Origin: Amoebidium appalachense
Taxonomy: Eukaryota > Protista > Ichthyosporea
Direction: 5' to 3'
DNA length: 64,000 bases
NCBI GenBank assembly: GCA_963693365.1
Contig: CAVNZM010000008.1
Coordinates: 9,056,818-9,120,817, forward strand
Both the position numbers and the translations under genes were made by a program. Below are positions 30,885 through 36,800 of this stretch, one piece after another; position 1 is the stretch's first letter, and the number at the start of each line of letters is the position of its first letter. The notes under the pieces were generated by a model that worked only from the letters and a program-made list of their open reading frames with translations, had not been told where the DNA came from and did not search any database.

Positions 30885-33800
30885 ATGGCGCTCTCCAAGC
30901 TGCAGCAGCTCAAATTGCTGCTCTGGAAGAGCTGGAAGACACAGGTGTGGCTAGGTTGCTTGATTTCTTGTTTTTGGGGAAAGGGGTGCGTGCGGTGCAT
31001 ATGCGTGCGTGTGTGTGTGTGTGTTGTGTATGTGTGTGGAGGGGAGAGAAGGGGAAAGTGGGGAGAAAGGTGAGGGGAGGGAAGGAGTGGGCAGGGGAAG
31101 GGGAGGAGAGAAGTATGGCTGTGTTTGCTTGTGGTTGTCTTTGGTGCTGTGGTGGTGTGTGGGTGGGTGAGGGTACGTGTTTGTGAGAGACAAAGGGGTT
31201 GGGAATGGGGATGGGGGGGTAGTTGATGGCGTCCAGCTTTTAGTCTTTCCCGCACAGCTCGTAGGCATGAAGTGCGGCTTGCGACGTGTGATTTCGATGA
31301 CATAAGAATCCATGACTCGGCTAACACTTTGTCTGCTGAGCAGATTCGGAGGAAAGTGGGAACGGCAGTAGAGCTTCTTCTGCCCCTTCTGTTCGTAGCT
31401 TTGGTTGTGGGTATGAAGGGATTGGTAAAGCCAGAGAGCTTCCCCACACGTGAGTATAGGCACTATCACCTTTTTTCATCTGTGAAGACTAAGAGGATGG
31501 GGGGATGGGCTGCTTGGCCTGTGGCGTCACTTGTAGTCCATGTTTTACAGACTCTCTGAAACCTTCCACATGTTGTCCCATGTACTTTTGAAATCTATTC
31601 CTTCCCACGGTGTGTGAATCTTGGCAGTGGTTCTTTGCAGCGGAGCTTGAACTTCCTAGAATGAGCAAGCAAGCACACACACACACACACACACACACAC
31701 ACACACACACACACACACACACACACACACACATAAGCAAGCACACACACATGCACACGTTGGTGTGTAATTCTTAGCATAGGTGCTCACACACACACAC
31801 AGATACACATGCACACACACAAACACACACACACACACACAGAGACACACTCACAGACATAAAGACCCTTGCACACAAACACACACACACACACACACAC
31901 ACACACACACACACACACACACACACACACACACACACTTGTGCATGCACACACACATGCACACTCACGTGCGCACACACATAAGCACACATACCCCCCC
32001 CCCCCCCCCCCCCTTTCCCACACACACGCCATTGGCACACATAATAGCTTATGCTTGCCACAAAGCTGGACCCCAAGCACACCACTATGTAGGCACAAGA
32101 GCGCAGGGAATTCTCTACTTTGCACAAACACCTAACTGGGCACACACGCACAGACGCGCGCACACACACTCGTGCAGGAAAACGCAAACCTGAAATCAGC
32201 ATGCACAAGAAGCCCACACACCTATGTAAAATCTTCGAAATTGCAATAGCCCACCGACAACACACACTTATAGCGCGGGCTATCAAACCATCGACTGAGG
32301 AGCAAGTTCTTAATGGGCAACACAGGGGGCTTTCAGACACACTCATGCACAGGAGGGATTATGCACATTCGCCCTGACAACTCAAAGCGTGACACTTTCT
32401 GGGCTGAAAGTACACGTTCACCCAAGGGCATGGATATACATACAAGCACAGGATGCTGCACTTTTACAATTGCGTGAAATGGGCTTGCACAAACATACAC
32501 ATGCACAGAGGGGCTTTGCCGTTGCACCCTTATACGTAAGGCATATCTCACGCTGTGCTGGTACACCTTCACACACACGAGCACGTACACACACAGTCAC
32601 AGGGCATAGCAGCACACATAAACCTTCATGAATGCACGATGGGTTGAGCACGCATGCACACACACACACACACACACACACACACGTGACATGAGCTAGC
32701 TGAGGATAACTGGCTTCTATGCACCGACGTCGAGCTAAGGCTCAAACTGACACATGGGCACACATACCTATTCACACAAGAGAGCTTGGATGTACATGTC
32801 AGTGAGTTGCTCAAAGCACCAGCATAATCTTAAAACCCAGTATGTTACCGATGGATATGGCCAATAAAAGTAACAATACCTCCCCCCGTTACTCCCCCAC
32901 CCTCCCCCGAACTCCTCCCCCCCCCCCCCCCCCCCCCCCATCCCCCACCTCGCCCCCCCCCGCTCCAAACTCAAATGATGCAGAGTACCAGAGTACCGAT
33001 TATGCTCTTAATGCCGTCCCCTGGCCAAAGGCCACCAAAGTGGTCTACTACCCGCCTACAGGAGACTGTACGTGCCCCGTTTGTGTGTACGTGCATGGGT
33101 GCTCTAAGCATATGTGTGGTGTAGTGTATGGTGTGTAATTTCTGTGCGTGTTGTGTGTGCACGCCTGTGGGTTGGTCGAAGAACGTTTCCTGTTTTACCT
33201 TTAAGTGAAGTTTGAGTGGGTTTATTTCACTTCACCGGCACGTTTTTTTTCGTGTGTGAAAGCGTCAGTGGTTTTACAGCAACATTCGAACTATCCCTTC
33301 TCGCTATTTGCGCCCTATTCATGCTTGGGCTCAGAATATCTTCTCATGCCGGGTCTGTTGTATATATGAACGACCTCCCTCCCCTTCCCCCCTCCCCCTC
33401 CCGCTCCCCCCCCCCCCCCCCCCAGAAACTCAGACGCAATTGATGACTTGGGTCCTCCCTGAGGATGGGCTCTGCTTATGACGCATACTGTGCACATGGC
33501 TGATGTTGCATACTTGAATGTTTGCCTTTGCATGTGTCCTGCACCATGCTTCTCGTCGTGTATGCGTACTTTGTACCGTGTTCCGCATTCAAAACCCCCC
33601 CAGTCTTCTTTCAGAGGTGTCCTTTCAGGACAGACCACTGTGTGGAGACCGCTTTACTTCCATGCAACCGGGCATGGTTGCTCTGTGTCGTGCATCTGTA
33701 AGCACATACACATTTTTCGCTGCACTGCATTAGTTTGCACACACATCTTCACCGTTTTGCTCACCTTGCTTGCATAAGCAACCCTGCTCGTCTTTGATCA

Positions 33801-36800
33801 AGACGGGTTGACCCGCCCAAGCTCAGTTGATGCTGCTGTCTGAGTTGGAGTGTCGTATATACGCGGGCTAAGGGGTCGAAACTCAGACGCAATTGATGAC
33901 TTGGGTCCTCCCTGAGGATGGGCTCTGCTTATGACGCATACTGTGCACATGGCTGATGTTGCATACTTGAATGTTTGCCTTTGCATGTGTCCTGCACCAT
34001 GCTTCTCGTCGTGTATGCGTACTTTGTACCGTGTTCCGCATTCAAAACCCCCCCAGTCTTCTTTCAGAGGTGTCCTTTCAGGACAGACCACTGTGTGGAG
34101 ACCGCTTTACTTCCATGCAACCGGGCATGGTTGCTCTGTGTCGTGCATCTGTAAGCACATACACATTTTTCGCTGCACTGCATTAGTTTGCACACACATC
34201 TTCACCGTTTTGCTCACCTTGCTTGCATAAGCAACCCTGCTCGTCTTTGATCAAGACGGGTTGACCCGCCCAAGCTCAGTTGATGCTGCTGTCTGAGTTG
34301 GAGTGTCGTATATACGCGGGCTAAGGGGTCGAAACTCAGACGCAATTGATGACTTGGGTCCTCCCTGAGGATGGGCTCTGCTTATGACGCATACTGTGCA
34401 CATGGCTGATGTTGCATACTTGAATGTTTGCCTTTGCATGTGTCCTGCACCATGCTTCTCGTCGTGTATGCGTACTTTGTACCGTGTTCCGCATTCAAAA
34501 CCCCCCCAGTCTTCTTTCAGAGGTGTCCTTTCAGGACAGACCACTGTGTGGAGACCGCTTTACTTCCATGCAACCGGGCATGGTTGCTCTGTGTCGTGCA
34601 TCTGTAAGCACATACACATTTTTCGCTGCACTGCATTAGTTTGCACACACATCTTCACCGTTTTGCTCACCTTGCTTGCATAAGCAACCCTGCTCGTCTT
34701 TGATCAAGACGGGTTGACCCGCCCAAGCTCAGTTGATGCTGCTGTCTGAGTTGGAGTGTCGTATATACGCGGGCTAAGGGGTCGAAACTCAGACGCAATT
34801 GATGACTTGGGTCCTCCCTGAGGATGGGCTCTGCTTATGACGCATACTGTGCACATGGCTGATGTTGCATACTTGAATGTTTGCCTTTGCATGTGTCCTG
34901 CACCATGCTTCTCGTCGTGTATGCGTACTTTGTACCGTGTTCCGCATTCAAAACCCCCCCCCCCCCGCGCCTTCCCCTCCTCTTCCCCTCCCCTTACCCC
35001 CCCCCCCCCCCCCCCCCCCCCTCCCCCCCCCTTCAACACACACACCATACAGCCAAGCACCCACACACCGACACTCGCATACATGTACATATGTATGTTT
35101 ATGGTTCATAGAAGGGTTTACATTCCCACATGAAGTGCATGAGCACGCACATGAGCCGCACAATGTTCAAGGACAAGTAGATAGCTACTAGCACGACTTA
35201 CTTATTGGCTTCTGTATCTTCATATGGCATGCTTATATGTGGCATACATACATATGTACAATTATACAATGCATGCACAAGGACACACACACGGATGCAA
35301 ACACATTGGGATGCACACACGCACACACACACAAGCACGGATGCCGCATGCGCAAACACCTACACGCGCACACACACAAACAACATGCACAGCCATACAG
35401 ATACACATCTCAAGAACTTGTGCACACGTTTGTGTGCAGGTGTGTGTATCAATACACACACACGCACCCCTTCCCCTCATTTGCTCACCCACTCAAACAC
35501 ACACACACACACACACACACACACACACACCACACGCACGCACGCACACATGCACGGACCGTCACATGCAGCAACACACACACATACACACATCACACGC
35601 ACACACGCACGCATGCGCGAGCACACAAAAACACAAACACAACACTCGAACAGCGCACACGCACACACGTACACGCATGCGCACGCACACACACACGCAC
35701 ACACACACACACACACACACACACACACACACACACCATGAATAGCCGCCAAGATCATGCAGCAGGTAGCAGCTATGGCCAAGGCCAGCAACCAAACGAT
35801 GCAGTTCCTGCCCGTACAGACCCTTGACGATCTGGCTAATGCCGGCCAGGGATCCACAAGCACAATCGGTACGATTATGCGCGATTGAGATAGTAGCTTC
35901 AACCTGGGTGATGGTTGTTGTGACTTCTGTGAGCATGCAGGGCACACATATAGTCGTGAAGGTCACCACATGTGTTCTAGGCATATAAGCGCTTGTTTGT
36001 GTGCTTGTGGGCTGCATAGTTAATACTTTGGTGGCTGTGGTTTATATTGTATTTATTTATTTATTTATTTATTTATTTATTTATTTATTTTTTTGGGGGG
36101 GGAAGGAGGTGAGGAGGTGATGTACTCATTGAAGCGTTGATGAGGTTATGGTTTATGTGCACTGGATGTACTTGCGCTCGTAGCGCCAGCGCCGAAGTTT
36201 TGGTTTCAACTTCCAAACCCAAGTATGGAGCCACACTGCTCCCGTTTCAAAGCCTTTCTTCTCCTTGCTGTGTTGCTTTCTGTACCGTGTTTTTCCGGAA
36301 TGGCTCTAATACCACACACTTATTTTTCTCCTCTAACCTCTCGCCCGAACGTTACCTTTGGCACAGGTGTCAACTTCACGCTTGCTAACGGGGGCTCGTT
36401 TGGGGACAACTCCACGTTCTGGCTGAGGTTCCCACGCAACCCGTACTGCACAAGCTACTCAAACTACTCCCAGTGGTATGTTTTTTTTTTGTTTGTTTTT
36501 TTTTTTTTTTGCACACGTGCTCTTGGTGGTTCTTTTGGGCTATTGCGTATGAAAGGTGGAGATGATGGTGAAGTTCGATACAAAGTCAATGCGTATTTTG
36601 TTTTGTGTGTGTGTGTGTGTGTGTGTGTGTGTGTGTGTGCGTGTGCATGTGCATGTGCATGTGCATGTGGGCGCATGTCCATGTGTGTCTGTGTAACTTA
36701 TGTATATGTACGGTGGTCTAGGGGTGATCTGTCTTACACGTGTTTGTGTGTGTGTGTGTGTGCATGTGTGTGTGTATACTAGCATCCCGGTGGGTCACTA

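Follow-up and report, generated by a model that had tools for sequence, protein, structure and literature searches.

What RNA is encoded by a short dispersed repeat that carries all the conserved motifs of a hammerhead ribozyme in an unexpected order? This question is raised by a stretch of 64,000 nucleotides (nt) of contig CAVNZM010000008.1 (positions 9,056,818 to 9,120,817, forward strand; hereafter the window), which contains copies of a C-flanked retroposon of two widely differing subfamilies, A and B. An initial annotation of this DNA had proposed a hammerhead with scrambled, pseudoknotted strands in both. Our analysis points to a split-core hammerhead, in which the cleavage site, GAAA and CUGANGA follow each other in this order and the strand bearing G10.1 likely comes from upstream. 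Its carrier, which holds it close to the 3' end, is likely a non-autonomous Penelope-like retroposon of the Naiad/Chlamys type, and we estimate the probability of this reading at about 0.75. What can be read from the DNA itself are the core motifs, the complementarity of all helices and, for the carrier, 5' truncation, a fixed 3' end, C-run flanks and a tandem array. They reflect a real, conserved RNA architecture, most likely that of a functional hammerhead.

From 5' to 3', the predicted ribozyme comprises a P1 strand, the P2 hairpin, the 10.x strand of stem II, a P3 strand, the bulge of a kink-turn, a stem III strand with GUU, and a stem I strand. The second half consists of the P5 hairpin, the 11.x strand of stem II, GAAA, the returning strands of stem III, the kink-turn, P3 and stem I, then CUGAGGA, one U and the closing P1 strand (Table 1). 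CUGAGGA, GAAA and GUU are intact in all six complete copies, which represent both subfamilies. Every element of a hammerhead core was found: CUGANGA, GAAA, NUH, A15.1-U16.1, C3-G8, stems I to III around the core, and G10.1-C11.1. The predicted cut is 3' of U33846 in B and of U22837 in A.

All helices named in the initial annotation (stems I, II and III, an outer stem and two hairpins) were recovered. Stem III has 8 base pairs (bp) in B (33838-33845/33881-33888) and 13 bp, including two G-U, in A (22824-22836/22868-22880). The split stem II consists of 5 Watson-Crick pairs in B (33810-33814/33873-33877) and 6 in A (22802-22807/22859-22864), stem I of 4 bp in B and 3 bp in A, and P3 of 9 bp with one bulge in both; the linker between stems I and II is 18-21 nt long, including a hairpin. 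Covariation was likewise confirmed, with changes on both sides of a pair between A and B in stem I (pair 3, A-U/G-C), stem II (pair 5, C-G/U-A), stem III (pair 8, G-C/A-U) and P3 (pair 5, A-U/U-G). The core, the tandem G.A/A.G and P1 are unchanged. The two subfamilies do differ widely while keeping the core motifs, since their alignment is confined to the motif (unit positions 164-342 of 447, 78-80% identity) and to 39 nt at the 3' end.

Four features had gone unrecognised in the initial annotation: P3 bridging stems I and II, a kink-turn, a weaker contiguous stem II, and a link to Naiad Penelope-like elements (PLEs). The putative kink-turn has the expected sequence layout in both subfamilies (a duplex, a 3-nt bulge, then G.A and A.G). 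Its 3b.3n pair is U.U in B, as is typical of box C/D kink-turns, and A.G in A. The 3-nt bulge followed by G.A and A.G is that of the standard kink-turn, and the A.G of subfamily A corresponds to the ion-folding type (McPhee 2014, PMC4382518, accessible part).

Could these motifs and helices be chance features of an amplified repeat? Only two subfamilies represent this host, the minimum free energy z-scores are modest (-2.7 and -1.3), and the descriptor of the split wiring was written after the motif had been seen, making it a post hoc test. This descriptor retrieved six complete copies in the window (G10.1 at 22802, 33810, 34263, 34716, 51182 and 55920), against none in 100 dinucleotide shuffles of the window; local shuffles gave 1 of 20,000 for B and 0 of 20,000 for A. 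These controls, together with the recurrence of all seven helices in the same succession among unrelated Naiad sequences (in the supplement searched below), make a chance origin highly improbable. The Rfam scan that the initial annotation had suggested returned no match at the gathering score in the window, and around B copy 1 gave a chance match (E 2.1); the lack of a hammerhead match is expected because the strand order is non-circular.

The order UH, GAAA, CUGANGA had been taken as previously undescribed by the initial annotation, which also allowed for another new ribozyme class. In the accessible part of Eckert 2023 (PMC10085705), this order is that of the type SGC hammerhead, reported only from metatranscriptomes and shown to cleave at 0.007-0.19 per min; a new class is unnecessary. 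Novelty of the topology thus falls for the block order; what stands as undescribed is the interruption at A9/G10.1, with the 10.x strand preceding the cleavage block. The non-circular strand order and the extra helices between A9 and G10.1 are supported as a structural prediction.

The predicted RNA resembles type SGC (HRIMA-1 and variants) in the order of blocks S, G and C, in its two core pseudoknots and in its full core. P3 also occupies the same place relative to the 10.x strand as the type SGC helix joining stems I and II, which supports 33810-33814 as the 10.x strand. In type SGC, the 10.x strand lies within 1-2 nt after CUGANGA, and Eckert assumed that CUGANGA and its adjacent stem strands can be separated by at most this distance. 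Here it lies 5' of block S, with P1 and P2 at A9/G10.1; the connection to stem III is completed by an arm containing a kink-turn, and the RNA is carried by a retroposon in genomic DNA. Block C is interrupted, the best-supported stem II strand being upstream, and the published descriptor limits (core CUGAUGA(U)G, linkers of at most 8 and 15 nt), which we compared by reading, differ from the values found here (N7 = G, 18-21 and 19 nt). Seen this way, the kink-turn arm closes the SGC cycle, and A9/G10.1 is where it opens. The RNA would probably work like a type SGC hammerhead, yet lacks the intact block C of that type.

An ordinary type SGC hammerhead would form stem II from the bases right after CUGAGGA, with 1-2 nt inserted, leaving the upstream strand, P1 and P2 as an off-switch or as incidental. 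With a 2-nt insertion, this contiguous stem II has 4 bp in A and 6 bp (3 of them G-U) in B; even old relatives retain the bases that follow the core, and the Eckert descriptors, as far as accessible, allow an inserted U (PMC10085705). Its duplex energies are -7.2 (B) and -4.2 (A), versus -10.2 and -8.8 for the split stem, and its formation would also require the opening of P1 (-13.7 in B, -11.7 in A). Moreover, subfamily A loses contiguous-stem pairs where the split stem gains them, a Watson-Crick complement abutting the hairpin arose in only 0.6% (B) and 0.04% (A) of 20,000 shuffles, and the contiguous stem is impossible, with no pairs at all, in 9 of 10 metagenome homologs described below. 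We consider this explanation improbable.

Other described hammerheads differ more clearly from the split-core RNA. The PK hammerhead is also natural, with an added helix and a pseudoknot, and keeps the G12/G8 mechanism; there, A9.G12 and G10.1-C11.1 are adjacent and close the pseudoknot loop, and the accessible part of the report describes no upstream 10.x strand or permuted order (Zhan 2024, PMC11300833). Retrozymes not flanked by long terminal repeats (non-LTR) and PLE minimal hammerheads share the short non-coding tandem units, one hammerhead per unit and PLE derivation (PMC4209133; bioRxiv 10.64898/2026.07.22.740005; both as far as accessible). Theirs are type I, circularly permuted and often dimer-dependent, whereas the ribozyme of the window would be non-circularly permuted and complete as a monomer; its 453-bp tandems therefore do not qualify as non-LTR retrozymes, which carry a type I hammerhead. 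PLE hammerheads commonly have one extra base between positions 9 and 10.1, according to the accessible part of the same preprint. In the literature consulted, mostly open-access, we found no description of helices inserted at A9/G10.1 or of a permuted hammerhead in Naiads, and the accessible parts of PMC10162972, PMC3088659, PMC6765202 and PMC13725137 contained no helix inserted at that place.

Naiads have been reported to lack canonical hammerheads, with some "core" or "half core" cases flagged (PMC8557442, accessible part). Their sequences were consulted through term searches of the supplement of that paper, and element names were inferred from the next header or from file order. By eye, 10 of the 54 Naiad consensus sequences were recognised as ending, at the 3' side, in the same helix order; they form seven sequence groups with different helix letters. 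These are Bfor (stem I of only 2 bp), one Clytia element, Amil, Aacu (two mismatches), Anas, two elements in supplement part 12, one in part 19, Obim and Ovul. Their stem II has 4-6 Watson-Crick pairs, with the upstream strand directly after a hairpin, and P1 begins 0-1 nt past A9. P3 and stem III meet at a bend that takes the form of a bulge or a side hairpin, or of a kink-turn with inverted polarity in octopus. Nematode Naiad 3' ends (supplement parts 14-17 and 19) have the normal order, CUGANGA then GAAA, with a long insert in stem II. In the spider part and in a second sequence of part 19, the core motifs occur in the S-G-C order and could not be fully fitted. Naiads may hold more than one hammerhead form. 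In Chlamys, no example was seen at 60 of 62 CTGATGA, 25 of 25 CTGAGGA, 23 of 23 CTGACGA and 10 of 43 CTGAAGA places of the supplement, where context is short and line breaks hide some.

A metagenome scan with a motif-only pattern was used to search for further relatives, 120 of about 1,300 loci being listed. Among these 120, 19 form one family with the split wiring, from two assemblies and close to Acropora Naiad ends. The strict split descriptor recognised 10 of the 19, compared with 2 of 170 other motif-bearing loci. Sixteen family loci were aligned, omitting L089 and L152 (at contig ends) and L138 (deletion). In this alignment, 92.2% of 806 cells are paired, and 23 cells, in P1, P3 and stem I, are changed on both sides (9.3 in shuffles; 0 of 500 shuffles as high). 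Stems I, II and III of this family differ from those of the window copies on both sides at several pairs. At two loci (L109 and L138), the C-terminus of a Naiad reverse transcriptase (RT) lies about 250-330 nt upstream on the same strand, and a full-length relative of L109 (P0139) contains an endonuclease remnant, CxC, DKA and RT in the Naiad order. Pfam searches with Naiad proteins gave RVT_1 only below threshold, and the Atlas lists eukaryotic RT-like clusters. Scans of viral contigs gave 17, 52 and 27 pattern matches, none satisfying the descriptor, and revealed no relative of the Naiad RT. MAFFT did not align the helices of the window ribozyme and of Naiad 3' ends. The link between the window and Naiads is one of architecture and not of detectable homology, and we infer common descent from layout and position.

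The organisation of the carrier agrees with a retroposon of this kind. One 3' end followed by a C run is common to all 11 copies examined (in variant form in one), while their 5' ends vary and 10 of the 11 also have a C run on the 5' side. A fixed 3' end, variable 5' ends and C-run flanks are the pattern of target-primed retroposition. The B array, located between exons 32983-33066 and 35745-35870, spans 1,535 bp, with no mismatch in 1,082 positions compared at an offset of 453; the joints between units are also present in DNA sequencing runs. Two further runs, which may be of RNA, cover the unit in the form of contigs. Naiad and Chlamys PLEs share 5' truncation, partial tandems and microsatellite targets (PMC8557442, accessible part), and here the target is (C)n, as in Chlamys, and not (TA)n. 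Unlike them, the window element shows no RT or endonuclease and its host is likely not an animal. A search of the window with 30 Naiad proteins (tblastn) gave no match at E <0.28.

Three candidates concerning the carrier were rejected. In the longest A copy, a short peptide encoded at its 5' end, which we took to resemble an RT thumb motif (unconfirmed), had no protein match, nor any in a term search of the Naiad supplement. What looked like a third subfamily, in variant rows and loose ends, is better explained by truncated copies that join within C runs. The 5' ends do not cluster persuasively at the predicted cut, with one of 11 copies within 1 nt of it. The extra base of the longest A copy is absent from most contigs assembled from sequencing runs.

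The initial annotation had also cited relatives at about 17100 and 16793 as varying at the free N7 position. They do not vary only there: one of them has U at C3, the other is cut off at a C run inside the core, and no S or G block was seen upstream of either, so they give no evidence for core conservation. Three short C-flanked remnants (16535-16630, 16793-16900 and 17060-17230) have a common GAUGA-N-GGGCU start and probably derive from the 3' parts of older subfamilies of this retroposon.

Table 1. Positions in the window of the predicted ribozyme, its parts, and copies of the carrier element.
Feature	Position	Strand	Remarks
Complete predicted ribozyme, B copy 1	33773..33933	+	copies 2 and 3 at +453 and +906
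P1 5' strand, outer clamp	33773..33784	+	pairs with 33920-33933; probabilities 0.8-1.0
P2 hairpin, 9 bp	33786..33808	+	abuts G10.1; probabilities 0.83-0.99
Stem II 10.x strand, from upstream	33810..33814	+	G10.1 = 33810; predicted pseudoknot with 33873-33877; same placement in Naiad homologs
P3 5' strand	33816..33825	+	pairs with 33897-33905; bridges distal ends of stems II and I
Putative kink-turn bulge strand, B	33826..33831	+	3-nt bulge, then G, A, U with 33896, 33895, 33894 (G.A, A.G, U.U)
Putative kink-turn, A	22818-22823 with 22881-22883	+	G.A, A.G, A.G
Block S	33838..33850	+	stem III strand, U16.1 = 33845, H17 = U33846, stem I strand 33847-33850
P5 small hairpin, stem I-to-II linker	33852..33864	+	5 bp in A, 3-4 bp in B
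Block G	33873..33888	+	stem II 11.x strand, GAAA 33878-33881, stem III strand
Kink-turn non-bulge strand and P3 3' strand	33894..33905	+	
Truncated block C	33908..33919	+	stem I strand 33908-33911, CUGAGGA 33912-33918, one unpaired U; no strong stem II strand after
P1 3' strand	33920..33933	+	33921-33926 alternatively the weaker contiguous stem II, 3 G-C and 3 G-U
B insertion, 3.39 head-to-tail 453-bp units	33426..34960	+	5'-truncated, C-run flanks; sense in ABCA intron
Fixed 3' end of element, then C run	34944..34960	+	same short C tract within internal unit junctions
Complete predicted ribozyme, A	22767..22919	+	element 22669-23004
Complete predicted ribozyme, A	51147..51299	+	in ABCA intron; element 51043-51384
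Complete predicted ribozyme, B	55883..56043	+	in ABCA intron; element 55812-56141
Longest A copy, about 480 bp	5581..6063	-	extra U at cleavage site and 2-nt loss in P2; descriptor failed
5'-truncated A copy	20580..20781	+	
5'-truncated A copy	41313..41465	+	
Truncated A copy, then truncated B copy	53220..53521	+	B inserted at C tail of A
Truncated B copy	57157..57339	+	5' end 1 nt downstream of predicted cut
Older truncated A-like copy	11150..11258	-	85%
Older truncated copy	9498..9605	-	80%, mutated core

How well the split fold agrees with computed structures depends on the subfamily. Nested folding, which cannot represent the two pseudoknots (stems I and II), gave P1, P2, P3 and stem III of B pair probabilities of 0.8-1.0. 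Contigs from three sequencing runs mostly differ from the B array at 33815, 33822, 33851 and 33906. The change at 33906 removes a competing partner of the stem II 10.x strand, so the majority of the family fits the split fold better than the array copy does. The circular monomer did not fold better than shuffles (-135.9 versus -130.8, standard deviation 5.6).

Several observations weigh against the split-core hammerhead, in addition to the contiguous pairing available in B. In subfamily A, nested folding supported only P1a and stem III, with probabilities of 0.26-0.39 for P2 and at most 0.1 for P3. Stem I, at 3-4 bp, is shorter than the 6 bp of most Naiad examples (supplement sequences as above). 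Counted by pairs, two-sided changes in the 16 metagenome loci (6 of 51) were not above shuffles (121 of 500), and stem II shows none within this family; these rows stem from two assemblies, and the search pattern had fixed their core columns. No window copy was detected with a covariance model built from the metagenome family. For either subfamily, no RT partner was found in the window (open reading frames; GIY-YIG, CxC, DKA and RT in order absent). The last point comes from the host gene: five of the six complete ribozyme copies lie in sense orientation in introns of an ABCA-family transporter gene (32983-57823, + strand, more than 30 exons), for which a full-length product is on record (98% identical over the query). 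Such copies argue against fast constitutive cleavage, and self-cleavage itself is a prediction.

These intronic copies fit slow or conditional cleavage, or a dead ribozyme. The fold might be real and catalytically dead, or nearly so, in this host, as a relic kept for binding RT or another protein in a non-autonomous repeat. The shortening of stem I to 3-4 bp, the five sense copies and the 6 of 11 copies that run through the predicted cut would be consistent with such a relic. Set against this are the core bases, intact in all six complete copies of two diverged subfamilies, and the 28 rows listed for variants of at least 2%, in which CUGAGGA, CGAAA and the GU of the cleavage site are all unaffected; a religated circle would also yield copies that read through the cut. 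On balance, we find a dead relic rather improbable.

The ABCA exons also inform on the host. The best named relatives of one exon (63% and 56%) come ahead of animals by E-value, and we take their gene prefixes to be ichthyosporean; with its closest relatives under such prefixes, the host is likely a unicellular holozoan. On the ABCA sense strand between 35.5 and 57.5 kb, there are 36 C runs of at least 12, compared with 11 G runs, and element copies inside the gene are all sense. Exons of a UFD1-like gene (19228-19365, + strand; Pfam E 4e-6, below the cut-off) and of an N-acetyltransferase-like gene (6890-9336, - strand; presumably resembling NAA50) were also found, and the element copies near them follow the strand of each gene. 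The window further contains three consecutive open frames at 61233-62953 (- strand), without an RT match in Pfam, which we take for a broken DIRS/Ngaro-type RT with RNase H. A second dispersed repeat of about 580 bp is present as inverted copies (28476-29058 and 63369-63898, 88% identical), together with a related 166-bp piece (60753-60918/63204-63369).

If the split-core hammerhead is functional, P1 would clamp both ends, A9 and G10.1 would meet without a direct bond, and P2 would stack at their junction. P3, the kink-turn and an extended stem III would make up a long nested arm on which stems I and II form as two pseudoknots. The kink-turn would bend this arm back, and P3 would hold the distal ends of stems I and II together, as loop-loop contacts do in ordinary hammerheads. 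By analogy with other hammerheads, G12 would act as the base and the G8 2'-OH as the acid, and the cut after U33846 would leave a 2',3'-cyclic phosphate and a 5'-OH. Slow or conditional cleavage could then release unit-length RNA from read-through or tandem transcripts. The templates of a partner RT would be tandem RNAs or circles formed by ligation, and its primer a nicked G/C run annealing to the C tract of the element; the short C tract at the unit junction could anneal to the nicked G strand. Circles as RT templates have been proposed for PLEs (bioRxiv 10.64898/2026.07.22.740005, accessible part). Copying from a circle or a tandem would leave the 3' ends fixed and the 5' ends variable, and would make the head-to-tail units identical.

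A bolder version of this hypothesis can be put forward only tentatively, and we think it unlikely to hold. The RNA would represent a fourth opening of the non-circular hammerhead cycle, with its ends entering the core between A9 and G10.1, and would be the hidden ribozyme of much of the Naiad clade, older than animals. Here, the kink-turn would let the host protein Snu13/15.5K switch cleavage on; if true, such gating would account for the tolerance of intact copies lying sense in introns.

Should the split-core hammerhead cleave, it would contradict the stated rule against interruptions in any of the three hammerhead blocks, and would be a natural hammerhead with a built-in kink-turn. Non-circular permutations would move from metatranscriptome RNAs into abundant genomic retroelements. 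Cleavage would also answer why canonical descriptors found no hammerheads in Naiads and would bear on the RNA processing of PLEs. The range of this RNA, and probably that of Naiad/Chlamys-type elements, would then include a host that is likely a unicellular relative of animals.

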